Source of the DNA: Dehalococcoidia bacterium
Lineage (GTDB): Bacteria > Chloroflexota > Dehalococcoidia > SZUA-161 > SpSt-899
DNA length: 64,000 bases
Assembly (NCBI GenBank): GCA_048539495.1
Contig: JBLYPS010000003.1
Location: 31,486 to 95,485, forward strand
Direction: 5' to 3'
Below, piece by piece: positions 18,561-63,235 of the stretch; within the stretch, counting starts at the first letter, position 1; every line of letters begins with the position of its first letter. The notes under the pieces were generated by a model. It searched no databases. It worked only from the letters and a program-made list of their open reading frames with translations, and had not been told where the DNA came from. The position numbers and the translations under genes were made by a program.

Positions 18561-18562
18561 AG

Positions 18563-18943: not shown

Positions 18944-19353
18944 CTTGGTCTCACCATTATTTCAAGTATATTACTAATATCGTCATCTACATAAAGCCAC
19001 CACTCCTCATCCAATCTATCTAAAAGATTCAGGGAGTCTTCAGGTGATAAGTTAGTTTTTATGATAATAAAAAGTCCTTCGAAATCTTCCTCGTGGTCGT
19101 GGTGAAGTTCTAACTCAAGAACAATATCATTACCAAACACACGTCTAATTTGCCAAAAGGCCTCTAACAAGACAGCCAATAATTCATGCTCTATAATGAA
19201 ACTTATAATTTCTGCTTCAGGATTGATAAAACTATATAATTGAAAGAGAGAGCTGACATTATCGGGCATAAAAAGTTCATTTTCTGTCAATGCTTCCGGG
19301 AAAGTCAAGGTTGTCATTTCTTTTCCTCTCCCTACCGCATTCTCACTACTCAT
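18940..19353 (-). CDS. Hypothetical acidic protein in the restriction-modification operon
   Basis: The 137-aa ORF has 4-nt overlaps with both neighbours and is low GC. Confidence 0.4.
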   Translation of the reverse strand: MSSENAVGRGKEMTTLTFPEALTENELFMPDNVSSLFQLYSFINPEAEIISFIIEHELLAVLLEAFWQIRRVFGNDIVLELELHHDHEEDFEGLFIIIKTNLSPEDSLNLLDRLDEEWWLYVDDDISNILEIMVRPR

Positions 19354-19356
19354 ACC

Positions 19357-20160: not shown

Positions 20161-20372
20161 GGTTCATTTTTCCTACTATGTTCTTTATGTGATTGGCTCA
20201 AAAAATCTTCCATACCTATCCCAAATTTATTTTCAAAGCCCTTCTTTGCAATATCTTCATATTCACTGAAATTGGCAATAAACAAATCTAATAGGCTGGA
20301 AACACAATATTTACAACCACCGTCACACTCAAAAATTATCTCAATTACTTTTTGAGCTTCATCTTTTCTCAT
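20157..20372 (-). CDS. Small Cys-containing hypothetical protein
   Basis: The 71-aa ORF has the motif 'CDGGCKYC' and is translationally coupled to mod and the next ORF. Confidence 0.3.
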   Translation of the reverse strand: MRKDEAQKVIEIIFECDGGCKYCVSSLLDLFIANFSEYEDIAKKGFENKFGIGMEDFLSQSHKEHSRKNEP

Positions 20373-21483
20373 TTTCCGTCAAATCCTTTGAATTATGAAT
20401 GTCTAAAAGCCTTTTTCTGGTAACCTGAATGGCAAACTTGGATAAATCAGAGCCTATCCATTTTCTGCCTAATTTCTCTGCTGTTGCTAAGGTTGTGCCT
20501 GAGCCACAGAAGAAATCTGCAACGATGTCGCCGGGGTCCGTTGTAGCCATTAATAAAACTTGCAAAAGTCCCTCGGATTTTTGGGTCAGAAAGTTTAGAC
20601 ACTCAGCAGAAACATTTATGACAGGTTTTACATTAACTGTTAGTAGTTTGCTGTTATTCAAAACTAATGTGATTTTGTCCTGTAGCACATCTCGCAAAAG
20701 CACATCCGCATAATATCTTCCACTTGCATCCCTAAGAGAAGTAAAAAACGGTTTTTCGTAATAAACTCTTTCTTTTAGTTTATTAAATTTAGGGTTTGCA
20801 TTTTTAGAATAGAATAAAATAATATCATGCTTCTTAGGAAAATCGGCTTCTTTACTCGGGGCGCCCCCTGTTCTATAACACCATGATATCTCATTTCTAA
20901 AACCTAGCTTATTTTCTCCACCCGGTCCGAAAACTTCGTCCATCATCACCTTAACATAATGTCCCGCATGCCAGTCAAGGTGCACATAGATAGAACCATT
21001 TTCAGCCAATAATTCCCTCATCAAAACCAACCGCTCATACATATATTCGAGATAAGAAGCAATCCCACCGCTCCAGGTATCCTTATAAGCCCGCTCTTCT
21101 ATGATAGATGGCTCCTTTTCTATTGCTTCGTCTCCAATTTTTGTTCTTATCGTAAAATCTGAACCTGTGAAAAACGGCGGGTCAATGTAAATCAGATTTA
21201 TCTTCCCAACCCAGCCCTGTTTAATCAGAGAACTCATCACTAATTTGTTATCGCCCCAGATAAGAAGATTCTTCCAGTCCTTTGAATAATTGGCGGGATA
21301 CTCGTCTTCGGGGAAAAATGAAATCGTATATCCACCCTTAATTCTGGGCTTGTTTACTGTTTCAACAACCTGAAATGGGAGATTGGGTTTTTCTATCGGT
21401 TTCTTCTCCCCTTTTTCGTATCGGTCGTATTTTTCTGCCCAGAGCAGCTCTACGTACTTCTTGTTATCAGGCATCTTTATCAC
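20359..21483 (-). CDS. mod: Beta-class N6-adenine/N4-cytosine DNA methyltransferase (Type III Mod-like, compact)
   Basis: Motif IV 'IYIDPPFFTG' comes before motif I 'DFFCGSGTTLATAEKLGRKWIGSDL', which is the beta-class order. At 374 aa it is short for a Type III Mod. Confidence 0.8.
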   Translation of the reverse strand: MIKMPDNKKYVELLWAEKYDRYEKGEKKPIEKPNLPFQVVETVNKPRIKGGYTISFFPEDEYPANYSKDWKNLLIWGDNKLVMSSLIKQGWVGKINLIYIDPPFFTGSDFTIRTKIGDEAIEKEPSIIEERAYKDTWSGGIASYLEYMYERLVLMRELLAENGSIYVHLDWHAGHYVKVMMDEVFGPGGENKLGFRNEISWCYRTGGAPSKEADFPKKHDIILFYSKNANPKFNKLKERVYYEKPFFTSLRDASGRYYADVLLRDVLQDKITLVLNNSKLLTVNVKPVINVSAECLNFLTQKSEGLLQVLLMATTDPGDIVADFFCGSGTTLATAEKLGRKWIGSDLSKFAIQVTRKRLLDIHNSKDLTENEKR

Positions 21484-28476: not shown

Positions 28477-28549
28477 GGGGATTGGGAAGTGTGAAATCAT
28501 CCTGTTTGAGAGGGGAGAGCACATTTCTTTTGCGAACTGTGTATTGCCC

Positions 28550-28750
28550 TAACCCGGACGAGCCGGAACCAACAAGGCATATTGTCGTTTAAATTCGAAA
28601 TTCGAAGCACGAAATACTAAACAAATCCCAAAGTTCAAATGTTCAAAACTGCCCCATATTTGGAATTTTCCTATTTGGATTTGTTTAGTGCTTAGAAATT
28701 AGGATTTAGGATTTTTCCATTTTGCGCAAGACTTTAGACTTAAGGGACTA
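28550..28750 (+). repeat. ~200-bp direct repeat, copy 1 (island boundary or noncoding element)
   Basis: It is about 93% identical to 44690-44889 in the same orientation. It contains the internal inverted repeat 'cgaagcacgaaatactaaacaaatcc' / 'ggatttgtttagtgcttag'. Confidence 0.7.
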
Positions 28751-28765
28751 TTATATCGGGGAGGT

Positions 28766-29641: not shown

Positions 29642-30130
29642 ATGAAAACGACGAATTACTTCACAACCAGCGTCACGGTGCGTCGTCCTTATCTCAAGAT
29701 GAAATGGATCGAATATGTGCTCAATAGTCCTATCTGCACAGAGGTGCAAGCTAATGGACGTATTCGTCATTGGGCACTGATAGTAGAAACTGGTAAGTAC
29801 CTGCGAGTGGTTACAGAACCAGACGGAAAAACAATACATAATGCTTTTTTGATCGCCGTTTTAAGCCCTAAAAGAGGAGGAGGTAGGAAAAAGATGGTTT
29901 TTCAATACCACCCGGATACTGATATGCTTTACCTAAAACTTGTCGAGGGGGTAAGTACGGAGTCTGAAGAAGTTACGCCTGGCATTGTGCTTGACTTCGA
30001 CGAACACAATCGGGTTATCGGCATTGAGATTGAGGACGCCAGCAACTTTGTTGATTTATCTCGTTTAGAAGTCTTAGCCTTGCCTGTCGCTAACCTGATA
30101 CTCAGTGAGCGAGTGTCTGCAAAGGTGTAG
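29642..30130 (+). CDS. DUF4258-DUF2283 fusion protein (normally a two-gene toxin-antitoxin-like pair)
   Basis: The C-terminal half 'MVFQYHPDTDMLYLKLVEG...GIVLDFDEHNRVIGIEIEDAS' resembles DUF2283. The N-terminal half resembles DUF4258. No stop codon separates them. Confidence 0.45.
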   Translation: MKTTNYFTTSVTVRRPYLKMKWIEYVLNSPICTEVQANGRIRHWALIVETGKYLRVVTEPDGKTIHNAFLIAVLSPKRGGGRKKMVFQYHPDTDMLYLKLVEGVSTESEEVTPGIVLDFDEHNRVIGIEIEDASNFVDLSRLEVLALPVANLILSERVSAKV

Positions 30131-30628: not shown

Positions 30629-30949
30629 TTGTCAATGTCGTTAGTTAAAACCGGATACGAGCACGTCACCATTGATGAAGTTGGCGTGCCAATTATTACA
30701 GGCACTACGATGAAGGTGGTCGAACTTGTGATTGAGAGAACAGCATACGGCTGGAGTCCGGAAGAACTCCACTTCCAACACCCATATTTGACCTTGGGGC
30801 AAATCCATTCAGCCCTGGCATACTATTGGGACCATGTGGAGGAACTAGGGCAGGACATTGAACGTCGCCTGCACCACGTCGAACAGGTATGCCAAAAAGT
30901 CGGGCCCTCGCCGTTGGTGGCCCGACTGAAAGCCAAAGGATTGCTATAA
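30629..30949 (+). CDS. DUF433 protein (antitoxin-like)
   Basis: The 'VPIITGTTMKVVELVIERTAYGWSPEEL...LTLGQIHSALAYY' segment resembles DUF433. Its stop overlaps the partner gene's start as TAATG. Confidence 0.6.
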   Translation: MSMSLVKTGYEHVTIDEVGVPIITGTTMKVVELVIERTAYGWSPEELHFQHPYLTLGQIHSALAYYWDHVEELGQDIERRLHHVEQVCQKVGPSPLVARLKAKGLL

Positions 30950-31296
30950 TGGCGATTGCCTTTTATATGGACACCCATATTCCCAGGGTCATTACGATTG
31001 GGTTGCGCCTCCGTGGAGTTGAGGTCATCACAGCGCAAGAGGACAATGCAACCGATCTGTCTGATCCTGGGCTACTTGATCGGGCCACGGGTCTGCGACG
31101 GGTGCTGTTTACCTTTGACGACGACTTGTTGGCTGAGGCCACACGACGCCAATTAGAGGGTATTCCTTTTGCAGGTGTGATTTATGCTCATCCCTTACGC
31201 GTGTCAATTGGAACTTGTGTCAACGATCTAGAACTTATTGCTAGAGTGGGAGAACCTGAAGATCTAGCGAATCGAACGGAGTTCTTGCCGTTTTGA
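30949..31296 (+). CDS. DUF5615 protein (PIN-like toxin-like partner)
   Basis: The 'MAIAFYMDTHIPRVITIGLRLRGVEVITAQE' segment resembles DUF5615. It has a 1-nt overlap with the DUF433 gene. Confidence 0.55.
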   Translation: MAIAFYMDTHIPRVITIGLRLRGVEVITAQEDNATDLSDPGLLDRATGLRRVLFTFDDDLLAEATRRQLEGIPFAGVIYAHPLRVSIGTCVNDLELIARVGEPEDLANRTEFLPF

Positions 31297-31343: not shown

Positions 31344-32012
31344 ATGAAAAGGTCGCTAATGTACTTTAAAGCCGTAGTCTTCGATCTCGACGGAACGCTT
31401 CTTGACACGCTGGAAGATATTGCCCACTCCGCAAATACTGTGCTGGCAAGACGCGGCTTCCCCACACACAGCCTGGACGACTACCGTTATTTCGTGGGCG
31501 AAGGGGTGACTACGCTTATTACCCGCGTGCTGCCCGACGAGAAACGGAACGATGACACCATAGCGGAGTGCGTAAGGGCATTTCGGGAAGAGTATGGTCG
31601 TAACTGGAATGTGAAGACGACGCCATATGACGGTGTGCCGCAGATGCTCGATGAGCTGGCGTCGCGCCATCTAAAACTGGCAGTGCTCTCCAACAAGCCG
31701 GATGATTTCACCAAAAAATGTGTCACGGAACTCCTGCCAGACTGGACATTCGAGATAGTTTTGGGCCTCCACAGTGGAATTCCGCCCAAGCCGGACCCAA
31801 CAGGTGCCTCTCAGGTAGCTGAGTACTTGAGTGTCCCGCCGTCACGCATCCTCTACGTGGGGGATTCCGGCATAGATATGAAGACAGCCATCGCTGCCGG
31901 CATGTTCCCGCTAGGGGTACTCTGGGGATTCAGGTCACAAGAGGAGCTCCAGGATAACGGGGCGCAGGCACTGATCTCACGACCACAGGAGATTTTGGCT
32001 GTCTTGTATTAG
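31344..32012 (+). CDS. HAD-superfamily phosphatase (phosphoglycolate phosphatase-like)
   Basis: Motif I 'VVFDLDGTLLDT', 'LSNKP' and 'VGDSGIDMKTA' are present. The 5' 138 bp of this gene are duplicated at 34962-35100. Confidence 0.7.
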   Translation: MKRSLMYFKAVVFDLDGTLLDTLEDIAHSANTVLARRGFPTHSLDDYRYFVGEGVTTLITRVLPDEKRNDDTIAECVRAFREEYGRNWNVKTTPYDGVPQMLDELASRHLKLAVLSNKPDDFTKKCVTELLPDWTFEIVLGLHSGIPPKPDPTGASQVAEYLSVPPSRILYVGDSGIDMKTAIAAGMFPLGVLWGFRSQEELQDNGAQALISRPQEILAVLY

Positions 32013-33061
32013 CTATCAGCTTTCAGAAGGGGAGGGGGACCCCTGACTCTTGACTCTTGACTAAAAGACAGCAGGTCGCACTTGTTGCCCACCACCAGCA
32101 CCGCTCTGCTATCCAGGAGCTCGATGACCTCGAAATCGGCGGCATTAAGCGGTTCGCTGATATCAGTCACCAGCAGGACAAGCGCCGCCTGCTCAATGGC
32201 CTTACGGCTCCGCTCCACGCCCAGGGTCTCGATCACATCTTCGCTGTGAGTGATCCCCGCGGTGTCGATCAGAACGAAAGTCACTCCTTCTAAGTTCACT
32301 ACCTCTTCCAGAGTATCGCGGGTGGTGCCGGGGATGGGGATCACGATGGCCCGATTCTCCCGTAACAACCGATTCAACAAGCTCGACTTCCCCACATTCG
32401 GCCGTCCCACGATGGCCGTCCGCACGCCCTGACGATAGACGATACCGACATCGGCGCCGGCGATGAGTTCATCCAGCTCGAAGTGTGCTTTCTTGATTGG
32501 CTCCAGGGCATCCTGTTCCTCGACCTCGTCCTCGGGGAAATCAATTCTCGCAGTGAGGTAGGCCAGCACGGATAGTAAGTCGTTCCGTATCAACCTAATT
32601 TGCCCGGAGAGCCTTCCCCCCAATCCCTGCACCGCCAGGCGGAGGCTGGCCTGCGTCCTGGCCTGCACGATGTCCAGGACCGACTCCGCCTGCGAGAGGT
32701 CAATCCTGCCGTTCAGGAATGCCCTCAGCGTGAATTCGCCCGGCTCAGCCAGCCGGGCTCCGAGCTTAAGTGTAAGTCCCAGTATATGCTGCAGAGGCAC
32801 AATGCCACCGTGACAGTTGATCTCTACGATGTCCTCCCGGGTATAGGTGTGGGGAGCAGCCATATAGGCCACCAGCACCTCATCAACCACCTCGCAGGTT
32901 CCGGGATCGATTATGTGCCCGTAGCTCAGTCGGCGGTCCGAGAGCCTCTTATCAAAAAGTTTTGTCGCAATCGAGCAGGCGTCCTGCCCGCTGAGACGGA
33001 CGATCCTGATCCCGCCCTCGCCAATGGGGGTAGAGATAGCTGCGATGGTATCTTGATACAT
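32009..33061 (-). pseudogene. mnmE: tRNA modification GTPase MnmE, 3'-truncated
   Basis: The N-domain 'IAAISTPIGEGGIRIVRLSG', 'GEFTLRAFLNGRIDLSQAE', and G-domain motifs G1 to G4 ('GRPNVGKSS', 'DTAG', 'NKCDL') are present. The ORF ends in a repeat-derived tail 'SQESRVRGPPPLLKADS'. It lacks the C-terminal helical domain and the CxGK motif. The 3' end abuts the convergent HAD gene. Confidence 0.55.
32013..32065. repeat. G-rich core plus heptamer array at the mnmE truncation point
   Basis: The sequence is 'ttcagaaggggagggggacccctgactcttgactcttgactaaaag'. Confidence 0.5.
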
Positions 33062-34961: not shown

Positions 34962-35100
34962 GATCGCTAATGTACTTTAAAGTCGTAGTCTTCGATCTCG
35001 ACGGAACGCTTCTTGACACGCTGGAAGATATTGCCAACTCCGTAAATACTGTCCTGGCAAGACGCGGCTTCCCCACACACAGCCTGGACGACTACCGCTC
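34962..35100 (+). repeat. Segmental duplicate of the 5' end of the HAD phosphatase gene
   Basis: It is about 95% identical to 31352-31490 and encodes 'MYFKVVVFDLDGTLLDTLEDIANSVNTVLARRGFPTHSLDDYR'. It is then interrupted by the family F repeat. Confidence 0.7.
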
Positions 35101-37882: not shown

Positions 37883-37971
<89 letters not shown>

Positions 37972-38022
37972 CATGTATCCTGCTCGGCAATTGTATCCAG
38001 GGATATACTCAGCCGCTCGAAA

Positions 38023-38108
38023 GCGGAGGGGGTGGGATTCGAACCCACGGTCACCAGAGATGACACCGCTTTTCGAGAGCGGCACCTTAAGCCACTCGGT
38101 CACCCCTC
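38023..38108 (-). tRNA. tRNA-Ser (anticodon CGA)
   Basis: The reverse complement reads GGAGGGGTGACCGAGTGGCTTAAGGTGCCGCTCTCGAAAAGCGGTGTCATCTCTGGTGACCGTGGGTTCGAATCCCACCCCCTCCG. It has a CCGCT/AGCGG anticodon stem with the loop CTCGAAA, a long variable arm, and no encoded CCA. Confidence 0.85.
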
Positions 38109-38813
38109 CGGGCCTGTTCTTGAAGCTAAATTAGCGATTGTAAGCACTTACCCCATTAGACATAACAAGGTTTTGCTGATAATTTGCTAATAATGATTTT
38201 GAACGGCTTCTTTTTCACACCTGCCATTAAGCAGTTTATCAAAACTCTGGGCTGCCTCCTCTTGAAGTCCAGGAGCAACGTGGGAGTAGGTGTCGAAGGT
38301 TATCTGAATAACTGGCATAGCCTAACCGATCCTGGACTATCTTGGGGTGTACTCCCTACTTCAGCATTAGTGAGACGCGGGTGCGGATTTCGCTCAAAGC
38401 CACCCGGTTCGCCAAACCGGCCACCTTCTCGGTCGAAACCGGCCACCTGCCCTAGAAGTAGCCGGGGGTCGGAGCGACACTAGGCTTATTTCAGTTTAGC
38501 TCAAGTTGGTGTCAATTGCAAATCCCTCCTTTCGCTCGTTTTTCTGATTTGCCACCGGGGTGGGGGGGGTGAGGGAAAAGCGTCAGATTGACATTGCGAT
38601 GGCTGCGTAGCTCATTATGAGGATTCTAGGGCTTTCTTGTTGCCCAGCTCTACTCCAGCTCCTCTCCGAGTCCTCTTCGACTAATTGGGCTCCATCTAGA
38701 AGTGGCCGATTTGCTCCGTGAAGGTGGCCGATTAACTCCGAAAAACGCACGCTGCACGCACACTCGGACGAACCGGAACCAGATTTTCATTCTCCACATT
38801 AGCTTTAGTAGAA

Positions 38814-40097
38814 TCAAGGGCTTCTTCTCGGGTCATTTCCACTTCCGCCAGTACTAGCTGGTTTCAACAACGAGGTCAATATAATAGTTATGACACTGAT
38901 TGTTGCACAGATTAAGAAAGCTAGTTGATAGCTACCAGTCATATCAAATATACTACCAGCCACGACCGGACCAATAGCTCCCCCAATTGCAAAGCCAAAC
39001 GCAAGAATCCCCATGATTGCACCGAGTGAACTTAGTCCAAATAACTCAGCGGTTACTGGTGACTCTAGCGCTGCTATACCACCATAGGCAAACCCAAAGA
39101 TAAGGGCAAACAGATACAACATCCACACCTCTCTGGCTGCTAACAGCCACAATAAAGCAACTGATATCAGAATAAAGTTAATAATAAGAGCTGACTTATT
39201 ACCAATTCGATCACCACCGCTACCCATTGTAATCCTCCCGGCTATACTTAGCCCACCAATAATAGGTAGAATATTGGCAGCACCGGTGGCTGAAATTCCA
39301 AGCTCAGTGGCGTGGGGGACAATATGCACCATGATAATATTTAAGAATATACCGAAACAGAACATCATAGCAAAAAACATCCAGAATTGGCTCATATGAA
39401 CTGCTTCCTTAAGAGAAAACCCCCTAGCCTGTAAACCTAAACCTTTCTCCTCTAACCCATTCTCACCATATGGCAACCGCGCCATCTGACCGGGGTCACG
39501 CTTTAAAAACTGCGCTACCGGTACAAGCAATACTAAAGTTATGATACCTACAATAATATAAGAGGTTCTCCAGCCATAGCTAGCGATGAGCCAACTAGTT
39601 ATCGGGGGTATAGTCATTATGCCTACACCTATGCCAGCTACAACAATACCGGTCATTATTCCCCTTCTCTTGGCAAACCACCTAGCTACTGTAGATACCA
39701 GCGGGACGAATCCGCCACTCATCCCAATACCCATCATCACCCCATAGAACAGATATAGCTGCCAAATAGCACCAATCTGAGACATCAATAGATGGCCCAA
39801 TCCTAAAATGAAGCCACAAGCTGTCACAACAATCTTCGGACCAAACCTATCACTTAATCTCCCGGTGATAATGCTCAGAAAACCGAATAAGAGCAAACAC
39901 AATGAGAAGGCACCTGATGTGATTGCTCTAGTCCAGCCAAACTCTGCTGACAACGGCTTAAAAAAGATACCAAAGCTATAAAATGTGCCGAACATTACCA
40001 CCAAGATAAGGAAGGTAACCCCAACCACAATATAACCATAGAACAACTTAGGTTTTCTATGTCCAGCTAAGTGAAAATCACCTGTCTCCTTAATCAA
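38814..40097 (-). CDS. MFS transporter (oxalate/formate antiporter-like)
   Basis: The product has 12 predicted transmembrane segments and the 'GRLSDRFGPK' loop motif. Confidence 0.8.
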   Translation of the reverse strand: MIKETGDFHLAGHRKPKLFYGYIVVGVTFLILVVMFGTFYSFGIFFKPLSAEFGWTRAITSGAFSLCLLLFGFLSIITGRLSDRFGPKIVVTACGFILGLGHLLMSQIGAIWQLYLFYGVMMGIGMSGGFVPLVSTVARWFAKRRGIMTGIVVAGIGVGIMTIPPITSWLIASYGWRTSYIIVGIITLVLLVPVAQFLKRDPGQMARLPYGENGLEEKGLGLQARGFSLKEAVHMSQFWMFFAMMFCFGIFLNIIMVHIVPHATELGISATGAANILPIIGGLSIAGRITMGSGGDRIGNKSALIINFILISVALLWLLAAREVWMLYLFALIFGFAYGGIAALESPVTAELFGLSSLGAIMGILAFGFAIGGAIGPVVAGSIFDMTGSYQLAFLICATISVITIILTSLLKPASTGGSGNDPRRSP

Positions 40098-40253
40098 AAT
40101 AACAAAACCCCCTTCAAACTACCCATACATAGCGCGGCCTCCTGCCGCAACCAAAATATTCGCGGTGGGCATAGTTTTTTCAGAGTAATATGCGCTAAAT
40201 CTGACCTAGCCGACTTGTCTCACAGCAACAAAGACTCCCGCTTCGACTTGTCA

Positions 40254-41093
40254 TCAAGATTTAGTCTCTTCCAAAGACATGCAGGGAGCTACAAGCTTGT
40301 TAAGCATACCTTGTAACTCGTCGAGCACCTCCTCAAGAGGCAGCAATGATTCAACTTGCTGCTTCAAATCCTTTTCCCAGTAGCTCTTCAGTACCCCTGG
40401 GTCTCCCGGAAGAAAATCGCTCATAGATCGGAGGCAAAGGCCCTTATGTGCAAGCTTCTCGGCCAGCACTGCCCCCAGAAGCTCGAAGTTAAGCTGGGAA
40501 GAGTGCTCCCTTAATACTCTCCATACGTCGTAATAATCTCTGGATTTACCGCGTTCAAGCAAGCTTCGCATCTTCTCAGCAAGCAACTCTTCCAGTGGGT
40601 AGACCAGTACCTCTCGTTGCTGATCAGTAAAGGGGTCAGTTAACACTCTCCGATATTCAGGCTCAAGGCATAATGGTTCGTCAAAGCTCAAGTCCATATA
40701 AATCATACCCGGGTAGGACAAGGGGCCCAGGAACTGACTTCGGATGCGAGCATAACCATCTGTCTTATGAAGCATCTTAGTCGTAAGCTGTATCTGGGAC
40801 TCCTGTTCTACCTGGCGATACCATCCGTCAAGAGATTGCCTTAGCTCTTCTTTAGCCATGTCATGTCTCACCGTAAAGTCCAGGTCTTCCGAGTAACGCC
40901 AGTGCGAGAAATAGACTTTACGTAGGGCAGTACCTCCCTTGAATACCATCACCTCATTCAGCACTGGCACCTGTGATAGAGTTTTAAGCACCTCTGTAAG
41001 CACGTAGTCTTTTTCCAATATGCCTAAAGCTACTTTTTCGTGTTGGGCCATCCTCTGCAATTCGGCCTTGGATAACACTACTGCTCCTTCCAC
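40254..41093 (-). CDS. abiEii: AbiEii-family nucleotidyltransferase toxin (type IV toxin-antitoxin)
   Basis: The 'VFKGGTALRKVYFSHWRYSEDLDF' nucleotidyltransferase motif (DUF1814) is present. Confidence 0.75.
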   Translation of the reverse strand: MEGAVVLSKAELQRMAQHEKVALGILEKDYVLTEVLKTLSQVPVLNEVMVFKGGTALRKVYFSHWRYSEDLDFTVRHDMAKEELRQSLDGWYRQVEQESQIQLTTKMLHKTDGYARIRSQFLGPLSYPGMIYMDLSFDEPLCLEPEYRRVLTDPFTDQQREVLVYPLEELLAEKMRSLLERGKSRDYYDVWRVLREHSSQLNFELLGAVLAEKLAHKGLCLRSMSDFLPGDPGVLKSYWEKDLKQQVESLLPLEEVLDELQGMLNKLVAPCMSLEETKS

Positions 41094-41899
41094 TGTAAGA
41101 GTTCATTCTCCGAAACATTTACGATGATTTTCCATCGGTCAAGATATCTACCCTCGGTATTTGCCAGGGTATCAAGCGGGGCATATCCACTACTCATGCC
41201 ATCACGGAGAATGACAATAGCCTCATCTCTATCGGGGCTTAGCGTCTCCAGAAGGTAGCCTAACCGCTGGCTTACAGCTCTGTTTCCGCTCTTCCGTGCA
41301 TACTCAGCCAATTTCACAAAATCAAGCTCGTCGCGCCCATACCACAGTGCCTTAGCTACTTCTGCTACGCCGCCACAGTACCGTAATCGGTCAAGGCAAT
41401 CTACTATTGTTTTTTCAGGTTCGGAGATGTTAACCCCATGTTTATCCAAAATCACTTCGGTTTCTCCAAAGAATTTATGCTCAGACATATACACAAAGCG
41501 GTATGTTACTCCGGAAATCTCCAGAGCTGGCTTTGACTTGCGACGAGTTGAAGCTATGAAGACAGTCCGACTAACTTGTTCCGTATAGCCATAGTAATTG
41601 AGGGCACTGCGGAATCCAATATAGTAGGGGTTGATAAGATAGGAGGCAATTATGAATTCATGTTCAGTCCACTCACCTTCGCGTCCGGCTTCAAAGGGTA
41701 ATATGAGATATTTACCCCGCTCCATGCGTTGAAGCCAGCGTCGCTTAACCAGTCTGGATAACAGTCCGTGCAGTCCACTATTGCTAGTACCGTAGATTTT
41801 AGCAGCATCATCGAAGGTGAAAAGGCGCTTACCTTGACGGGTCAGCTCTGTCAAGAGATTGCTCCCTGTATCGCCAAGAGTTCTTATGTTTTGTGCCAT
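41078..41899 (-). CDS. abiEi: AbiEi-family antitoxin/transcriptional regulator
   Basis: The N-terminal wHTH region '...RLVKRRWLQRMERGKYLI' is typical of AbiEi. It overlaps abiEii by 16 nt. The start is probably MAQNIRTLG. Confidence 0.65.
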   Translation of the reverse strand: MAQNIRTLGDTGSNLLTELTRQGKRLFTFDDAAKIYGTSNSGLHGLLSRLVKRRWLQRMERGKYLILPFEAGREGEWTEHEFIIASYLINPYYIGFRSALNYYGYTEQVSRTVFIASTRRKSKPALEISGVTYRFVYMSEHKFFGETEVILDKHGVNISEPEKTIVDCLDRLRYCGGVAEVAKALWYGRDELDFVKLAEYARKSGNRAVSQRLGYLLETLSPDRDEAIVILRDGMSSGYAPLDTLANTEGRYLDRWKIIVNVSENELLQWKEQ

Positions 41900-42164
41900 A
41901 ATAGTTACCTCCGCCGTCATTATTATAGCACAAAACATCAACCATCATGGATGCTAAATGGGAGAAAGCTTAAACTAGCCCCTTGTCAGGGTGAACAATC
42001 CGTCATTTTGTTACCCCACCGAGTGCATTTGCTGCCTTGCAAGCCAAACGCTTTGATGCTAGAATCATTTTTGATAGTGACAGTTGCGTTAGATAGTTAG
42101 ACTAGAGGCCATTTTAAAAGTTCTACCTATTATAACCCCAACTCCAGAGGGAAGGAAGTTAAGC

Positions 42165-44621
42165 CTATTTCTTTTCCTCTCCCGGGGCATAGAATTGTTT
42201 TAACTTTGCCGCCATTTCCTTTAATTTTTGGTCCACTTTATAGTTGACCGTCCCTTCGGGATAGGTGCCGTCTTCCCCTCTCTTAGCGGCCTCAACCCCG
42301 GTAAGGATTTCGATGCCCTCATCAATGGTATTAACAGCATAGATGTGGAACTTCCCTTGCCGCACAGCTTCAACCACTTCCTGGCGCAGCATCAGGTTGC
42401 TAAGATTATGGTGCGGCATTAGTATCCCTTGGTCTGCGGTAAGCCCATTAGCCTGACAAACCTTGAAGAAACCCTCGACTTTCTCGTTTATGCCACCTAC
42501 CGGCTGGAGTTCTCCCTTCTGATTCACCGAGCCAGTAACGGCGATATTCTGTTTTATCCCCAAGCCCGATAGGCTAGAGAGCAAGGCATAGAGCTCGGCT
42601 GAAGAGGCGCTATCCCCCTCCACACCTTCATAGGACTGCTCAAAACATAGACTAGCCGACAAAGAGAGGGGATTATCCTGGGCATACTTCCAGCCCATAT
42701 AGCCACTAAGGATGAGAACGCCTTTATCATGGATTCGACCACTGAGCTGGGACTCCCTCTCAATATTAATAACGCCTCCCCGCCCCAAGAAGGTTTTGCA
42801 GGTGATGCGGGATGGCTTGCCAAAGGTGATGTCCCCCAGATTGTAGGTGCTGAGTCCATTCACTTGCCCCACTACCTCCCCTTGGGTATCTATCATGATA
42901 GTGCCCCGATTAATCAACTCCCTGATTCGCTCATCAGGCAGGTTATGGCGGAAGTGCCTTTCCTCAATGGCTCTTTCTACATGCTGTGCCGATACCACTG
43001 AAGCCCCGTCCTGGCAAGCCCAGTATTCTGCCTCCTCCACCAGCTCCTTAACCTGGGCAAACCTGGAGGATAGCTTTTCCTGGTTAGCCACCATTCGTGC
43101 CGCAAACTCGGCTACCCTGGCGACCCCAGTAGTATCGAAATGGTGTAGCTCACCTTCCTCACAACAGCCAGCAATGAAGGCTGCAAAAGCCATCAGGTTA
43201 TCCTGGCTCCTTTCCACCTGAAAGTCAAAGTCAGCCTTTACCCTAAAGGTCTCCCAGAAGTCTTCATCACGGATTGATAATAGTTGATAAAGCAGGCTAT
43301 CACCAATAAGGATTACCTTGACAGAGATAGGTATTGGTTGTGGCCTTAACCCCTGTGGTGCTATGTGGCCAAACTGTTCTAAAAGGTCTTCAATACGAGC
43401 TTCCTTAGTCTTAATCGCTCGCTTTAAGGCTTGCCAAACGCCAGGGTTGCTCAATACCTCATTGGTGCTGAGCAGGAGATAGCCCCCGTTAGCTAAGTGA
43501 AGAGCCCCCGGTTTCAACATGGTGTGGTCGCTGAGATATCCCCCCAGCAGGAAGCGCCGCTCAATCTTGCCCAACAGATTGGAGTAGGTAGGATTGGACT
43601 CGATGATTATCGGTGGTCCTTCAGTGGTGCTATTGTCAACAAAGACATTAACCTGGAAGGGGAGGAAAGGATCCCGCCAGTGCGTCGCATAGCTAATGGG
43701 GACACCCATGGCTGGGGGTGCTGGCTCCTCGCTTTCCTTGAAAATGCTTAAATTGCTCAGGGTATAGTTCTTAAGGTCGGCCAGATACTGGATAACCTTT
43801 GGCAGGTCTTTATATTCCCGCAGAAGGTAGTCCAGGAAGCGGGAAACAGTAAAATCAGCTATAGCTTTGTCGGTACTCTGTAATTTTTCCCCAGTTTGCT
43901 TCTCTATCTCATGCACCCGTTCTAGAACTGCTTTCAGCTTTTTTAGCAGGTCAGAGCGTTTTGCCTCCAATTCTTTCTGTTCTGTCTCCGCTAAAGCCAA
44001 GTAATCCGCCTGAGATAGGGGTTTCCCATCAGCCAAAGGATATAGCATTACTCCTGTGGTTGCCATCTCAAAGAGGAAACCTTGGCGTTGGGCTTCCTCA
44101 TTTATTTCTTGGAGAAGCTTCTGCTGGGCAGCGCGGCTTTCCTCTACGGTCCTTTTCCTTTGGGCTTTGTATTCTTCGCTGGAGAAGGCTTTAGCTAGCT
44201 CTTCTTTAAGCCCCAGTAAGAGGTTACTTATTTGGTCTTTGAACACTTTACCCATTCCGTGAGGCAGGTTCAGGACTTGCGGGTGGTCGGGGTCGGCATA
44301 GTTGTAGAGATAACACCAATCTTCGGGGTGATACTGTAGCTCTGTCTTTCTCTTCTCCGCCAGCTTTTTAATATAACTCTTCACCACTGAAGTCTTGCCG
44401 GTTCCGGTTAGCCCGGCGACGTAGATGTTATAGCCATCACGGTTCATGGACAGTCCAAACTCAATTGCCCGTATAGCTCGGTCTTGCCCGATAAACTCCC
44501 CCAACGGCGCCAAATCTTTAGTGGTGTTGAAGTCAAAAATAGACGGGTCGCAGTGCCAGTATAATCTATCTGCCGGAACTTCATATTTGGTGATGTCCAT
44601 AGTTCCTCCCTTCAGGGTCAT
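42165..44621 (-). CDS. Lon-like AAA+ ATP-dependent protease (LonB/BrxL-like family)
   Basis: A Walker A 'VAGLTGTGKTS', a central coiled-coil, and a C-terminal Lon S16 domain are present. The S16 domain contains a catalytic Ser in 'EGDSASSAELYALLSSL' and a Lys in 'GGINEKVEG'. Confidence 0.7.
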   Translation of the reverse strand: MTLKGGTMDITKYEVPADRLYWHCDPSIFDFNTTKDLAPLGEFIGQDRAIRAIEFGLSMNRDGYNIYVAGLTGTGKTSVVKSYIKKLAEKRKTELQYHPEDWCYLYNYADPDHPQVLNLPHGMGKVFKDQISNLLLGLKEELAKAFSSEEYKAQRKRTVEESRAAQQKLLQEINEEAQRQGFLFEMATTGVMLYPLADGKPLSQADYLALAETEQKELEAKRSDLLKKLKAVLERVHEIEKQTGEKLQSTDKAIADFTVSRFLDYLLREYKDLPKVIQYLADLKNYTLSNLSIFKESEEPAPPAMGVPISYATHWRDPFLPFQVNVFVDNSTTEGPPIIIESNPTYSNLLGKIERRFLLGGYLSDHTMLKPGALHLANGGYLLLSTNEVLSNPGVWQALKRAIKTKEARIEDLLEQFGHIAPQGLRPQPIPISVKVILIGDSLLYQLLSIRDEDFWETFRVKADFDFQVERSQDNLMAFAAFIAGCCEEGELHHFDTTGVARVAEFAARMVANQEKLSSRFAQVKELVEEAEYWACQDGASVVSAQHVERAIEERHFRHNLPDERIRELINRGTIMIDTQGEVVGQVNGLSTYNLGDITFGKPSRITCKTFLGRGGVINIERESQLSGRIHDKGVLILSGYMGWKYAQDNPLSLSASLCFEQSYEGVEGDSASSAELYALLSSLSGLGIKQNIAVTGSVNQKGELQPVGGINEKVEGFFKVCQANGLTADQGILMPHHNLSNLMLRQEVVEAVRQGKFHIYAVNTIDEGIEILTGVEAAKRGEDGTYPEGTVNYKVDQKLKEMAAKLKQFYAPGEEKK

Positions 44622-44689
44622 CCTATCTTTATTTATATACTAATTCGTTATATGGTTCAAGCTAAACATCTGTGAGGCTTTATTTACGC

Positions 44690-44889
44690 CAACCCAGACA
44701 AGCCGGAACCAACAAGGCATATTGTCGTTTAAATTCGAAATCCGAAGCACGAAATACTAAACAAATCCCAAATCCCAATGTTCAAATGTTCAAAACTGCC
44801 TCATATTTGGAATTTTGCTATTTGGATTTGTTTAGTGCTTAGAAATTAGGATTTAGGATTTTCCATTTTACGCAAGACTTTAGATTTAA
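44690..44889 (+). repeat. ~200-bp direct repeat, copy 2
   Basis: It matches 28550-28750. It lies between the mutL 3' end and the Lon-like gene's 5' end, and it may carry that gene's promoter. Confidence 0.7.
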
Positions 44890-44921
44890 GGGACTAACCT
44901 GTCTTGTTCTATTCCCGAACT

Positions 44922-46619
44922 TCAACGCCTCCCAAATTCCCGGTCTAACTGGGAAGCACTCAGATGAATCATGGTTGGCCTACCGTGCGGACAGGTGCGG
45001 GGGGACTGCGTCTGTTCTAGTTGATGCACCAGCTCCTCCATCTCCTGAAGGCTTAGAGACTGCCCTGTTGGAATCGCACCGTGGCAGGCTAAGGAAACAG
45101 CAATGCTTTCCTGCCACTCGCCTTTTTGCAGCCCTCCCAGCGAATCGAGTATCTCCGCAAGCACCCTGGTTATATCCTGCTTCCTGAGCACAGCAGGCAC
45201 CGAACGCAGTAGATATGTTCGTTCCCCAAATTGCTCCAGATAGAAGCCGCTTCCATAGAGAACCTCCTGCTGGGATTCCAGAAGTTCCTGCTGCTGCGCC
45301 GTGAGATCGATCGCCATTGGCTCGAGCAATCCTTGAACCTCTATCGCTCGACTTAGCTGTTGCTCTCGCGCCCTCTCAAAAATGACCCTCTCATGTGCTG
45401 CATGCTGCTCGATGAGGTACATGCCGTCAGGACCCTCGGCAACGATGTAGGCGTTCTGGAGCTGACCTACAACCCGCAGAATCGGCAATTGCGAGCGGGG
45501 CTCCGGGCCCTCACGCTCCTCGGTGACCAGAGAGGTCGACTTGTCGCCAGGTGGCGTGGCGAAGAGTGGTGATGTGAAAGCACTTGGTGGAAGGGGTGAT
45601 ATCCTCATGCTGGGCAGCGGCGCAGAACCAACCAGGGCATTTCTGACCGCCTTCTGCACCGCAACGAAGACATGGCGCTCATGGAGAAACTTAATCTCAT
45701 TCTTGGTGGGATGTACATTGACGTCTATCTCCTGCGGAGGTAAGGAGATGTTGATCACCACTATCGGGTGTCTGCCGGTCATCAACATCCCTTGATAGGC
45801 TTCTTGAACAGCATAAGTCAACATCCGACTCTGCACACAGCGGCGATTGACGAAGAAGCTGAGGTAGTTACGATTAGAGCGGAAGAGGGAAGAGGGGCTG
45901 ACAAAGCCATGAATGCAAAGGACTGCCCCCTCGACACCCTCATTTGCCCCCAGTTCCAACATCGCTTGCGCTGTCTCCAGACCATAAACCTCGACAAGTA
46001 CGTCTCTCAGGCTGCCGTTGCCTGGCGAACGAAAACTGGTTCGACCATTGATGATGAGATTGAATTTCACTTCCGGGAAAGCCAAGCTGAACTGGGTCAC
46101 CAGATGGCTGATATGGCCATTCTCGGTAGAGGGTGATTTCAGAAACTTGAGGCGAGCCGGGACATTGCGGAACAGGTCTCGAATGGTGACAGTGGTTCCC
46201 CGGGGACACCCTTGCTTACCCTTGCTGGTGATAGCTCCATTCTTCAGCTTGATAGCCGTACCGACGACATCATCCCGATATCGGGTGACCATCGACACCT
46301 CGGCGACGGCGGCAATCGAGGGCAGAGCCTCCCCACGGAAGCCGAGGGTCGAGACGGCCTCAAGGTCAATCTCCGAGGTGATCTTTCCGGTGGCGTGCCT
46401 CTCGAAGGCAAGCTCCACTTCATCAGCAGGAATGCCCACCCCATTATCGGTTACGCGGATGATATCTATCCCACCCCCGCTGGCCTCCACGGTGATCTGG
46501 GTGGCCCCGGCATCCAGTGAGTTTTCCACTAGTTCCTTCACCACTGAGGCCGGCCTTTCGACTATCTCACCGGCAGCAATCTTGGAGATGACATCGGGGC
46601 AGAGAACTTTGATCGACAT
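44922..46619 (-). CDS. mutL: DNA mismatch repair protein MutL
   Basis: A GHKL ATPase N-terminus 'IAAGEIVERPASVVKELVENSLDAG' and a C-terminal dimerization domain are present. Confidence 0.9.
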   Translation of the reverse strand: MSIKVLCPDVISKIAAGEIVERPASVVKELVENSLDAGATQITVEASGGGIDIIRVTDNGVGIPADEVELAFERHATGKITSEIDLEAVSTLGFRGEALPSIAAVAEVSMVTRYRDDVVGTAIKLKNGAITSKGKQGCPRGTTVTIRDLFRNVPARLKFLKSPSTENGHISHLVTQFSLAFPEVKFNLIINGRTSFRSPGNGSLRDVLVEVYGLETAQAMLELGANEGVEGAVLCIHGFVSPSSLFRSNRNYLSFFVNRRCVQSRMLTYAVQEAYQGMLMTGRHPIVVINISLPPQEIDVNVHPTKNEIKFLHERHVFVAVQKAVRNALVGSAPLPSMRISPLPPSAFTSPLFATPPGDKSTSLVTEEREGPEPRSQLPILRVVGQLQNAYIVAEGPDGMYLIEQHAAHERVIFERAREQQLSRAIEVQGLLEPMAIDLTAQQQELLESQQEVLYGSGFYLEQFGERTYLLRSVPAVLRKQDITRVLAEILDSLGGLQKGEWQESIAVSLACHGAIPTGQSLSLQEMEELVHQLEQTQSPRTCPHGRPTMIHLSASQLDREFGRR

Positions 46620-50128: not shown

Positions 50129-50437
50129 ATGCCAAAACAAAAAATCAGGATCAAACTAAGGTCTTACGATTATCGGGCACTGGATCAATCGGCGGCTCAT
50201 ATAGTTGAGGCGGCGGAAAGCACCGGGGCTGCGGTGGTGGGGCCTGTGCCTCTACCCACCCATATCAAGAAGTTCTGCGTTATCCGCTCGCCGGTGATTG
50301 ATAAGGACTCTCGGGAGGAGTTCGAGATCCGCACTCATAAGCGATTGATAGATATACTCGATCCGACATCGAAGACGGTCGATTCCCTCACCCGCCTCAA
50401 TCTGCCCGCCGGCGTGAGCATCGAGATAAAGGTCTAA
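50129..50437 (+). CDS. rpsJ: 30S ribosomal protein S10
   Basis: '[18 protein letters not shown]' matches S10. It follows fusA directly, with no tuf in between. Confidence 0.95.
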
Positions 50438-50512
50438 TGGGTAGTGGGTAATGGGTAATGGGGGCTACGGGGTACCCCTATAACCTATGACCTATCACCT
50501 ATTACCCAGGAT
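50438..50512. repeat. Family C palindromic repeat ((GGGTAAT)n - GGGGTACCCC - (CTATNACC)n)
   Basis: The sequence is 'tgggtagtgggtaatgggtaatgggggctacggggtacccctataacctatgacctatcacctattaccc'. The rpsJ TAA stop lies in the adjacent 'ctaatggg'. Confidence 0.6.
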
Positions 50513-51851: not shown

Positions 51852-52096
51852 TCACCGAGAAGAACACCGACCTGATGACCCGGAACAAGTACGTTTTTGA
51901 GGTTATGAAAAGTGCTAATAAGGATCAGGTCAAAGCCGCAGTGGAGAAAGCCTTCAAGGTCACGGTTGTCTCGGTAAACACGGTCATGGTTCACAGCAAG
52001 CCCAGGGGCTACGGGAGGCTTAAAGGACACCGTCCATCCTGGAAGAAGGCCATTGTCACCCTTATGGAGGGAGATAAGATCGAGATATTTGGGTAA
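51818..52096 (+). CDS. rplW: 50S ribosomal protein L23
   Basis: '[14 protein letters not shown]' matches L23. The terminal Gly and TAA stop are encoded by the first GGGTAA unit of the downstream repeat. Confidence 0.95.
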   Translation: MHIYEVLRRPVITEKNTDLMTRNKYVFEVMKSANKDQVKAAVEKAFKVTVVSVNTVMVHSKPRGYGRLKGHRPSWKKAIVTLMEGDKIEIFG

Positions 52097-52172
52097 TGGG
52101 CAATGGGTAATGGGGTGTTACGCGGTACCCCTATAACCTATGACCTATAACCTATAACCTCGGATAAACATG
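52090..52172. repeat. Family C palindromic repeat
   Basis: The sequence is 'gggtaatgggcaatgggtaatggggtgttacgcggtacccctataacctatgacctataacctataacctcgg'. Confidence 0.6.
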
Positions 52173-58401: not shown

Positions 58402-58938
58402 ATGAATGAAAGAATTGATCCAGAGGGACTAAGCCTGACTGAGACGTTGGTTCATGTCAGACGAGTGGCCAAGACGGTGGGCGGAGGGCGAAAACTTTCC
58501 TTCAGTGCCCTGGTAGTGGTTGGCGATAATCAGGGTCATGTAGGCTCCGGCCTTGGCAAGGGCAAAGAAATTCCGGTGGCCATCGGAAAGGGGACAGCCG
58601 CAGCCAAGAAGAACCTTATTCGGGTGCCGATGAATGGGAGCACTATTACTCACGAGATAACTGCCAAGTTTGGCGCTGCTAAGGTCTTGCTCAAACCAGC
58701 AGCCCCTGGAACCGGAGTGATTGCCGGCAAGGCAGTCCGATCCGTGATTGAGTCCGCCGGGATAAAGGATATCCTGAGTAAATCGCTGGGCAGCACTAAT
58801 CCTATCAATGTAGTTCAGGCGACTATACGCGCGCTGAGCGAGCTAAAGGATCCGAAACGAGAGTCAAGAGTCCAGACTCCAGAGTCGAGAGTCAAGGAGG
58901 GAGGGGAACTCCAGAATCCACTTGACATTGTCAGATGA
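58402..58938 (+). CDS. rpsE: 30S ribosomal protein S5 with a repeat-derived C-terminal extension
   Basis: An S5 dsRBD and C-terminal domain are present. The tail '[28 protein letters not shown]' is encoded by a heptamer array (58858-58900) and the end of the MITE-like element. Confidence 0.9.
58858..58900. repeat. Heptamer array with G-rich core inside the rpsE 3' end
   Basis: The sequence is 'gagtcaagagtccagactccagagtcgagagtcaaggagggagggg'. Confidence 0.55.
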
Positions 58939-59040
58939 GGTGGTAACGATGAATTTCTTTCTGTCATTGCGAGCGAAGCGAAGCAATCTCGGTGGCAGGG
59001 AGGAGATTGCTTCGTCGCCTTCGGCTCCTCGCAATGACAT
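58921..59040. mobile_element. Partial copy of the MITE-like element (family A hairpin plus one terminal inverted repeat)
   Basis: 'cttgacattgtcag' matches the left terminal repeat of the 3838-4101 element. The hairpin pairs 'gtcattgcgagcgaagcgaagcaatctc' with 'gattgcttcgtcgccttcggctcctcgcaatgac'. It supplies the rpsE stop codon. Confidence 0.55.
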
Positions 59041-61889: not shown

Positions 61890-62636
61890 ATGGGTATCAT
61901 AATTAAGTCGCCAAACGAAATAAATATAATGCGCCAGGCAGGACGGATCGTAGCAACTATTCTCGCTGCCTTGAAAAGCGAGGTGAGGTCGGGCATAAGC
62001 ACCGGGATGCTGGATGCTATTGCCACACGGATGTTTCAAGAGTACGGGGCACGGGCGTCGTTCAATGGGTACCGAGGTTTTCCGGCCTCTATCTGCACAT
62101 CAGTGAACGAAGAGGTGGTTCATGGCCGGCCGGGGGGGAGAGTCCTTCAAGAAGGCGATCTGATTGCCATCGATGTGGGAGCGATATATAATGGTTTTCA
62201 GGGAGATGCGGCGATAACCGTGGGAGTGGGCCAGATAAGCCCCGAGGCGGAAAGTCTCATTGATACCACTCGCCGGTCTCTGGAAGCGGGTATCGCGGCA
62301 GCCCGCGAAGGGGCTCGTCTGAGCGACATTTCAGCGGCGATCCAGTTATGTGCCGAGTCCAATGGTTTCTCGCCGGTAAGACAATATGTGGGGCACGGGA
62401 TCGGTCGACAGATGCACGAAAAACCGGAGATTCCCAATTTCGGGCCGCCAGGCAAAGGGCCGATATTGAAACGAGGCATGACTCTGGCCCTGGAACCAAT
62501 GATCAACGCCGGCGGCTGGGCCACCAAGGTGCTCCCCGATCGCTGGACGGTGGTCACGGCCGATGGCAGCCTTTCGGCACATTTCGAGCATACCATCGCT
62601 ATCACCAATGGTGCAGCGGAGATACTGACTGTGTGA
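61890..62636 (+). CDS. map: Methionine aminopeptidase type I
   Basis: 'CTSVNEEVVHG' and 'DIGAIYNGFQGD' match metal-binding motifs of the enzyme. Confidence 0.9.
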   Translation: MGIIIKSPNEINIMRQAGRIVATILAALKSEVRSGISTGMLDAIATRMFQEYGARASFNGYRGFPASICTSVNEEVVHGRPGGRVLQEGDLIAIDVGAIYNGFQGDAAITVGVGQISPEAESLIDTTRRSLEAGIAAAREGARLSDISAAIQLCAESNGFSPVRQYVGHGIGRQMHEKPEIPNFGPPGKGPILKRGMTLALEPMINAGGWATKVLPDRWTVVTADGSLSAHFEHTIAITNGAAEILTV

Positions 62637-62716
62637 TGGGTGATGGGTAATAGGTAATGGGTGATGGGGGTTACGGGGTGCCCCTATAACCTATAACCTA
62701 TGACCTATAACAAGGA
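62634..62716. repeat. Family C palindromic repeat
   Basis: The sequence is 'tgatgggtgatgggtaataggtaatgggtgatgggggttacggggtgcccctataacctataacctatgacctataacaagg'. The map TGA stop is its first unit. Confidence 0.6.
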
Positions 62717-63022: not shown

Positions 63023-63136
63023 ATGAAAGTCCGAGCTTCGGTTAAGCCCCGCTGTAACAAATGCAAGATTGTGAAACGTAAGGGCGTGGTGCGGGTTATT
63101 TGCTCTAATCCCAGGCATAAGCAGAGCCAAGGATGA
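63023..63136 (+). CDS. rpmJ: 50S ribosomal protein L36
   Basis: It encodes [37 protein letters not shown] (37 aa). It is not in the ORF track because it is under 60 aa. Confidence 0.9.
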
Positions 63137-63235
63137 TAGGTGATAGGTGATAGGTGATGGGTGATGGGTGATGGGGGTTACGCCGTACCCCTATTACCTA
63201 TTACCTATGACTTCTGGGGTAATGGGTAAAAGGAG
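63134..63235. repeat. Family C palindromic repeat ((GGTGATA)n/(GGTGATG)n ... GGGGTTACGCCGTACCCC ... (CTATTACC)n)
   Basis: The sequence is 'tgataggtgataggtgataggtgatgggtgatgggtgatgggggttacgccgtacccctattacctattacctatgac'. The rpmJ TGA stop is its first unit. Confidence 0.6.

Follow-up and report, generated by a model that had tools for sequence, protein, structure and literature searches.

The 64,000-nucleotide stretch of contig JBLYPS010000003.1 analysed here (the window), from an uncultured Dehalococcoidia lineage, carries three open reading frames (ORFs) on the minus strand between positions 40254 and 44621, which encode proteins of 818, 287 and 279 amino acids. An earlier note on this DNA, made from the sequence alone, had read these ORFs as a Lon-like protease with a P-loop (Walker A motif), a helical insert and a Ser-Lys dyad, next to an AbiEi/AbiEii toxin-antitoxin pair, and had suggested a BrxL-like, stand-alone or undescribed defence or quality-control module. 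All three ORFs are present at these positions, the protease features are seen both by Pfam and by motif reading, and the neighbouring AbiEi/AbiEii pair is genuine as judged by Pfam and by PADLOC profiles that match over nearly their full length. The protease gene, called lonC below, and abiEi lie on the same strand, separated by 265 bp (Table 1). Each of the two elements is of a known kind, and together they do not form a new defence module. We consider it very likely that two known, unrelated elements lie side by side by chance here, the protease serving as a solitary factor of general quality control and AbiE being a mobile cassette.

The longest ORF of lonC encodes 818 amino acids, but the true start is probably the ATG at 44600, which gives 811 amino acids, because GGGAGG precedes this codon as a Shine-Dalgarno sequence and because all close homologues, like the deposited protein (P0001), have matching N-termini. 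Residue numbers used in this study follow the 818-amino-acid reading. Pfam searches with the protease identified LonC_helical (residues 101-134, 1.7e-13), AAA_32 or 'LonB-like AAA' (residues 335-466, E = 4e-47), LonB_AAA-LID (5e-23) and Lon_C, and gave no match to the LonA N-domain. No transmembrane segment is predicted, the maximum 19-residue hydropathy being 1.6. The closest solved relative is Meiothermus taiwanensis LonC (MtaLonC, PDB 4fwd), which is matched with E = 3e-96 over residues 322-777 and a second time, weakly, over the N-terminal P-loop region (19.6 bits). The segments EGDSASS and NEKVEG align with S582 and K625 of MtaLonC, and the corresponding catalytic residues Ser671 and Lys714 are invariant among 76 homologues. 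Asp, not Pro, directly precedes the catalytic Ser, which is a signature of LonB and LonC enzymes (PMC9569914). AlphaFold, run from a 19-sequence alignment of low diversity (mean pLDDT 54.7), confidently modelled residues ~120-295 as a long helical hairpin that includes a small beta element, with pLDDT values of 80-87 for the helices at 123-289.

Two insertions are unique to LonC proteases, namely CX3GLX(G/E) after the catalytic-Lys helix and phi-X2-A-phi in helix alpha5 (PMC3391209). The first corresponds to C722-QAN-GL-T-A729 in the window protease and has the clade consensus C-x-A-K-G-L-T-G; in this species it ends in Ala, compared with G/E in the definition. The second corresponds to V749-V-E-A-V753, which aligns to VLEAV of MtaLonC, and both insertions are conserved in the 76 homologues. 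Based on the LonC_helical domain, the match to 4fwd, both insertions, the D-S...K arrangement and the lack of a transmembrane segment, the 811-amino-acid product belongs by its sequence to LonC, a previously described subfamily of the Lon proteases. Its Walker A motif is canonical (GLTGTGKT), and the form GxTGTGK[TA] is found in most of the 76 homologues. In place of the Walker B Asp, this clade has S, N, Q, Y or G throughout, and an acidic residue is conserved three positions past the Walker B position (D/E388).

Relatives of the protease are numerous, with 2784 matches at E<=1e-10 and at least 591 genomes carrying a relative in a scan of one genome per species. The best 120 of the 2784 matches are all ~817 amino acids long, at least 67% identical and built from the same four Pfam domains, and the named sources among these best 120 are mostly Dehalococcoidia/Chloroflexota. 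The family was found in 49 of 72,556 plasmid records, of which 44 are non-mobilizable and most are large replicons, and in 3 of 50,697 phage records. In a distant Dehalococcoidia metagenome-assembled genome (MAG; L049), LonC, S7 and EF-G are 53%, 56% and 59% identical, respectively, to their window counterparts, and the LonC gene also lies ~4 kb from the S12 operon. The similar divergence of LonC, EF-G and S7 in this MAG fits vertical descent at a housekeeping-like rate. As a separate observation, a LonC-clade protein is encoded at positions 14025-16397 of an unannotated 21.8-kb Klebsiella pneumoniae plasmid (NZ_CP061967.1, H1); it is 47% identical to the window protease and closer to it than are most proteobacterial matches.

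The neighbourhood of lonC was examined at 80 loci in other species, covering up to 10 kb on either side and including Dehalococcoidia, Syntrophales, Nitrospirota, Atribacterota, Bacillota and others. When all flanking ORFs were clustered, the commonest neighbour cluster was present at 16 of the 80 loci, and no Pfam family occurred more than seven times among the 145 immediately flanking proteins. These 145 are mainly flavoproteins, oxidoreductases, transporters and sensor kinases. PADLOC matched one of them to GajA-type models and three to mad2, and none to AbiE; the single AriA, NsnB and HEC-01A matches may belong to the same protein as the GajA-type one. These defence matches are sporadic, and a search at the 80 loci for a conserved operon partner of LonC found nothing that recurs beyond clade-local synteny. 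An example of such synteny is seen in a Dehalococcoidia subclade (L028, L031, L032, L033 and L036), where an MFS gene and a ~250-amino-acid gene lie upstream of LonC on the same strand. The MFS proteins of these five MAGs are 32-35% identical to the window MFS protein, whose gene lies on the opposite side of lonC, beyond AbiE. We conclude that lonC is a solitary, conserved, chromosomal gene whose genome position is not conserved. The earlier note had looked to housekeeping LonB-type orthology in a conserved syntenic position as the finding that would speak against a defence role; lineage-wide orthology to a LonB-like (LonC) protease is found, and conserved synteny is not.

The downstream pair has the makeup of an AbiE operon, in which abiEi and abiEii overlap and the antitoxin gene comes first. 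AbiEi comprises 273 amino acids from the ATG at 41899, or 287 for the longest ORF from the TTG at 41941, and has an N-terminal winged helix-turn-helix domain (AbiEi_4) and a C-terminal AbiEi_1 domain in Pfam; the PADLOC AbiEi profile matches residues 22-285 with E = 3e-82. AbiEii is matched nearly over its full length by PADLOC (1.6e-65) and by the Pfam AbiEii family (7e-34). The nucleotidyltransferase motifs defined for AbiEii are hG[GS] (I), DhD (II), K/R (III) and +DxxD (IV) (Dy et al., PMC3985639). The window protein carries motif I at G53-G54 and motif II at D70-L-D72 (KGG-x15-DLD), with R66 and S68 between them, a motif III K/R within LAEKMRSLLER, and motif IV as R-D-Y-Y-D. Ser68 occupies the position of T65, the reported phospho-acceptor of Streptococcus agalactiae AbiEii. 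Because the operator of the S. agalactiae abiE operon consists of 23-bp inverted repeats (PMC3985639), the 23-nt inverted repeat at the start of the window operon (Table 1) is by analogy a candidate AbiEi operator. A disruption of abiEii noted in one MAG (L004) is a run of N and hence an assembly gap.

Comparison at the DNA level establishes that the AbiE genes move independently of their neighbours. Positions 40236-42012, comprising the promoter/operator region, abiEi and abiEii, have a 95.8% identical counterpart in another Dehalococcoidia MAG (L087/L088), where the cassette sits in an unrelated context, flanked by an isochorismatase gene on one side and a HicB/thiolase pair on the other. 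Similarity is lost 18 bp past the abiEii stop codon on one side and ~110 bp upstream of abiEi on the other, which is 153 bp before the lonC stop codon. Beyond the lineage, close AbiEii homologues are encoded by one MAG each of Bathyarchaeota (78% identity) and Omnitrophica (71%), and the GC content of the cassette is 0.47, compared with 0.56-0.60 for flanking core genes. Searches by tblastn with the window AbiEi and AbiEii detected no homologue within 10 kb of LonC at any of the 80 loci. Conversely, in the six contexts examined for the closest AbiE homologues, no Lon-like gene lies within 6-7 kb, and several of these contexts are among other toxin-antitoxin or restriction-modification genes. 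In one Dehalococcoidales MAG, homologues of LonC and of AbiE are both present, on separate contigs (L020 and L102, respectively). The abiEi-abiEii pair is a self-contained, horizontally mobile cassette, and most plausibly it came to lie next to lonC through an accidental insertion in this species only. The two tRNA-Ser genes were considered as an integration site of the low-GC stretch and set aside; the stretch lies on their 5' side and an integrase is absent.

One competing explanation is that LonC and AbiE constitute one defence module, in which the protease degrades AbiEi under infection or stress and thereby frees AbiEii. The genes are indeed adjacent on one strand with a short gap, LonC-type enzymes act on unstructured proteins, and Lon-mediated antitoxin degradation has been proposed, although not demonstrated, for the DUF1814 system SanaTA. 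However, AbiE is absent from all 80 LonC loci, a Lon gene is absent from all six AbiE contexts, the cassette edge stops short of lonC, and a related MAG keeps the two genes on separate contigs. Furthermore, neutralisation in the current AbiE model requires no protease, and abiE has its own operator-like inverted repeat. These findings make a coupled module very improbable, and with it the AbiE-linked defence system that had been proposed from the sequence; the defence half of that proposal is likewise contradicted by the metabolic character of the lonC neighbours, whereas its hedge towards quality control agrees with our results. A variant in which AbiE inserted downstream of lonC and was then co-opted in this lineage, such that a nucleotide- or stress-gated LonC removes AbiEi and triggers AbiEii, appears just as improbable. 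If true, such co-option would provide the first physiological substrate and defence role for a LonC enzyme.

Two further explanations concern the protease itself. An ATP-dependent, LonB-like housekeeping protease, whose P-loop and displaced acid (D/E388) power hydrolysis and translocation, would agree with the Walker A motif of most homologues, with the conserved acid past the Walker B strand, and with the strong AAA_32 and LonB LID scores. In contrast, the canonical Walker B Asp is lost clade-wide, the score for the archaeal LonB equivalog TIGR00764 (NCBIfam), 112.8 bits, falls far below its cutoff of 516.6, the closest relatives that have been characterised are devoid of ATPase activity, and both LonC-specific insertions are present at the ATPase-protease interface, such that we regard this explanation as unlikely. 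It is scarcely credible that the protein is an orphan BREX component, that is, a stand-alone DNA-binding defence ATPase like BrxL. Its superficial domain order (P-loop ATPase, then Lon-like C-terminal domain) and its sole PADLOC match, a weak and partial one to mad8 (E = 8.8e-6, 23 bits) that covers just the P-loop and the helical part, point in that direction. However, the DNA-dependent ATPase BrxL has a functional Walker B residue, E280, and a C-terminal Lon fold devoid of a protease motif, and is confined to BREX types 1 and 4, where it is encoded in BREX operons (PMC10164562). The window protein has the reverse pattern, with no Walker B acid and an invariant Ser-Lys dyad, and the BrxL models of PADLOC and NCBIfam do not match it at E<=0.01. 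Neither BREX nor MADS genes are present in the window, where every ORF of at least 450 amino acids is accounted for as a housekeeping gene or the type III Res (LeuRS, a Mur-ligase-type protein, a carboxyltransferase, a type III Res, a class II tRNA synthetase, Pol I, LonC, MutL and EF-G), and the neighbours in the 80 other genomes are not defence genes. Thus, the reported absence of BREX partners is borne out for these ORFs, but the label 'BrxL-like' does not hold, and assignment of the protease to BrxL, MADS or any other defence family was rejected.

Along with the SanaTA proposal, several observations weigh against a chance pairing of a non-hydrolysing LonC with a mobile cassette. The N-terminal 320 residues of the protease resemble MtaLonC only weakly, and characterised LonCs have a degenerate Walker A (GPPSLGKH) where this clade has a canonical one, so ATP hydrolysis via a non-canonical catalytic residue such as D/E388 might be possible. 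The AlphaFold prediction is poor outside the helical insert, which leaves the ATP site without a structural check. With GC contents of 0.496 and 0.436, lonC and the MFS gene likewise fall somewhat short of the flanking core genes, and the entire stretch at 38.1-44.9 kb could conceivably have been rearranged or acquired. Because lonC synteny is not conserved, no AbiE-free 'empty site' is shown. Finally, our view of this genome is the 64-kb window, and its LonA, ClpP and FtsH content lies beyond that scope.

We favour a scheme in which the two elements act separately. MtaLonC binds ATP-gamma-S, exhibits no ATPase activity and forms hexamers that close on ATP-gamma-S, and LonC-type enzymes degrade unstructured proteins. 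By homology, the window LonC would be a ring-shaped, self-compartmentalised soluble oligomer whose Ser671-Lys714 dyad would break down proteins that are unfolded or unstructured, with no need for ATP-powered unfolding, and which may also act as a holdase-type chaperone. Nucleotide would be bound for ring assembly or activation, as is ATP-gamma-S in MtaLonC, and not hydrolysed for translocation. Given a P-loop that is intact and under selection and a Walker B aspartate that is absent, we infer that 'binds, does not hydrolyse' is the most economical description of this site. The gene would be vertically inherited, transcribed from its own promoter and devoted to general protein quality control. 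AbiEii would be the DUF1814 nucleotidyltransferase toxin of a bicistronic toxin-antitoxin, or abortive-infection, cassette with a predicted role in phage defence. By analogy, AbiEi is expected to repress the operon via the inverted repeat at its start and to neutralise the toxin, probably by inducing auto-phosphorylation of AbiEii at Ser68, and AbiE would otherwise act as described for AbiE/MenAT systems.

Table 1. Features of the lonC-abiE region, given as window positions for DNA and as residues (818-amino-acid numbering) for LonC.
Feature	Position	Strand	Basis or remark
lonC-type Lon-like protease gene	42165..44600 (longest ORF to 44621)	-	Pfam, PDB match, homologues
abiEi antitoxin/repressor	41078..41899 (longest ORF to 41941)	-	Pfam and PADLOC
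abiEii DUF1814 nucleotidyltransferase toxin	40254..41093	-	Pfam and PADLOC
Mobile abiE cassette (promoter/operator, abiEi, abiEii)	40236..42012	-	1.78 kb, DNA comparison
Inverted repeat, 23 nt, 7-nt spacer	41886-41908 and 41916-41938		87% complementarity, spans abiEi start codon; candidate operator
Promoter-like TTGAAC-N17-TATAAA	44660-44632	-	32 nt upstream of lonC start, consensus resemblance only
Repeat copy 1, ~210 bp	28544-28755		Same orientation as copy 2, 16.1 kb away
Repeat copy 2, ~210 bp	44684-44900		mutL-lonC spacer, 84-300 bp upstream of lonC start codon
Two tRNA-Ser genes	37884-38109	-	Flank
MFS transporter gene	38814-40097	-	Flank on abiEii side
mutL	44922-46619	-	Flank upstream of lonC
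S12/S7/EF-G operon	Starts 46927	+	Opposite strand
LonC Walker A GLTGTGKT	Residues 70-77
LonC helical hairpin insert	Residues about 120-295		Pfam and AlphaFold
LonC Walker-B-like GGYLLLSTNE	Residues 379-388
LonC LID	Residues 494-558
LonC protease domain	Residues 578-775		D670-S671 and K714
LonC-specific insertions	C722-A729 and V749-V753		CQANGLTA and VVEAV

The ~200-bp repeat that the earlier note had placed at both ends of a block does exist in two copies in the window. These are ~86-93% identical and each contains a long imperfect internal palindrome. However, in the same metagenome assemblies this ~210-bp repeat recurs at three or more additional unrelated sites and at the ends of several contigs, and the 16 kb between the window copies hold core genes, including MnmE, cobalamin salvage genes and the two tRNA-Ser genes. 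This dispersal in multiple copies, together with the enclosed core genes, rules out the repeat pair as the ends of a mobile block, and the description of a 'repeat-bounded block' was abandoned. The further sites are in L091/L092, L096 and L097, and the contig ends are those of L090, L094 and L095; the element is a dispersed intergenic one, MITE- or REP-like, and several assemblies break or collapse there. As a structured RNA the repeat was discounted, its single-strand fold (z = -0.62) being no better than those of shuffled sequences.

Copy 2 of the repeat had also been said to sit at the lonC promoter. The copy does lie upstream of lonC, but the promoter-like match falls outside it, between the repeat and the lonC start. 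This TTGAAC-N17-TATAAA match, the best -35/-10-like one, was taken directly from the sequence; a stricter scan did not report it, and the hexamer breaks that scan's requirement for T at position 6. Terminator and promoter consensus scans over 40-45 kb yielded sites no more numerous than in shuffled sequence. A HrcA/CIRCE heat-shock operator upstream of lonC was likewise considered and rejected, there being no match in the window even at three mismatches.

Several other features of the window lie apart from the lonC-abiE region. A low-GC island at 15993-21483 (GC 0.37-0.43, compared with ~0.55 in its flanks) has SerRS on one side and a class II aminoacyl-tRNA synthetase (PF00152, D/K/N type) on the other, and encodes a type III restriction-modification system. 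Its Res protein (855 amino acids) combines ResIII and an endonuclease domain, and Mod is apparently split, with ORFs 20359-21483 and 19357-20160 matching successive segments of a single PADLOC MTase_III profile. Between mod and res lie genes for a HEPN protein and a 137-amino-acid partner. This island is the real defence island of the window. Just past copy 1 of the ~210-bp repeat are the small ORFs 29642-30130 and 30889-31296 (DUF2283 and DUF5615), which have no PADLOC match.

Additional repeats were observed in the window. A second repeat family of ~72 nt, with runs of GGGTAAT/GGTGAT-type heptamers around a GC-rich palindrome (ACGGGGTACCCC), is spread across the ribosomal-protein gene region at 50427-50498, 52080-52151, 62633-62704 and 63126-63211. 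A 60-nt inverted repeat pair at 3899-3958 and 58931-58990, 82% complementary, 55 kb apart and containing GCTTCGCTCGCAATGACAGAAAGAA, may represent another dispersed element. A 134-nt duplication with 97% identity links 31353-31486, which is the 5' end of a HAD-hydrolase gene (31344-32012), with 34964-35097, an isolated fragment between a CbiA-like gene and a cobC-like phosphatase gene that is probably a gene remnant. The MnmE/TrmE ORF (32009-33061, minus strand) ends where the convergent HAD gene ends and may be truncated, as it encodes only 350 amino acids and, of the 211 positions in the MnmE helical-domain profile, matches only the first 97.

The result is mainly negative, in that a Lon-like gene beside a defence module is no evidence of a new defence system. 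The check applied here, which combines the homologue neighbourhoods of both partners with the DNA-level boundary of the cassette, can be reused elsewhere. The analysis also draws attention to a large, Dehalococcoidia-centred and biochemically unstudied branch of LonC with a canonical Walker A but no Walker B aspartate, a combination that the two studied LonCs do not represent. This branch offers a way of asking whether the binding of nucleotide is by itself enough to gate the assembly of Lon-like proteases. In addition, the sharp-edged 1.78-kb abiE cassette illustrates the movement of a small toxin-antitoxin module between Dehalococcoidia genomes.

Among known systems, the window protease is closest to the LonC subfamily (MEROPS S16.007), which is represented by MtaLonC (PDB 4fwd, 7euy and 8k8v) and Thermus thermophilus TTC1975. 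It shares with these enzymes an AAA-like alpha/beta subdomain that is split by a helical hairpin extension and followed by the LID and the S16 protease domain, the D-S...K dyad, both insertions, solubility and the lack of both a LonA N-domain and a catalytic Walker B Glu. It differs in its canonical GLTGTGKT, compared with GPPSLGKH in Meiothermus and Thermus, and in the loss of the Asp that MtaLonC keeps in GYLILDA (GYLLLST here). It is also ~90 residues longer than characterised LonCs, mainly in the helical insert, is only weakly similar to MtaLonC in its N-terminal part, and comes from an uncultured Dehalococcoidia lineage rather than from Thermus or Meiothermus thermophiles.

Archaeal LonB (Thermococcus onnurineus TonLonB, PDB 3k1j, E = 3e-22) has the AAA_32 and LID domains and the D-S active site in common with the window protease, as well as an insertion at the same place in the alpha/beta subdomain. 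However, the LonB insertion is a membrane anchor, whereas that of the window protease is a soluble helical hairpin, and LonB has a functional Walker B whereas the window protease lacks the Walker B acid. BrxL of type 1 and type 4 BREX, which forms ring oligomers, similarly joins a P-loop ATPase-like module to a Lon-fold C-terminal domain, but the window protease is unlike it in its intact dyad, its missing Walker B acid and its lack of BREX neighbours.

The window AbiE proteins are distant in sequence from the characterised AbiE of Lactococcus lactis and S. agalactiae and MenAT of Mycobacterium tuberculosis, and are recognised by profile only, and the inverted repeat of the window operon overlaps the start codon. 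Nevertheless, they share with these systems a bicistronic, overlapping, antitoxin-first gene order, a COG5340-type winged helix-turn-helix AbiEi, DUF1814 nucleotidyltransferase motifs I-IV with a Ser/Thr two positions ahead of DxD, an inverted repeat of 23 nt at the operon start, and horizontal mobility.

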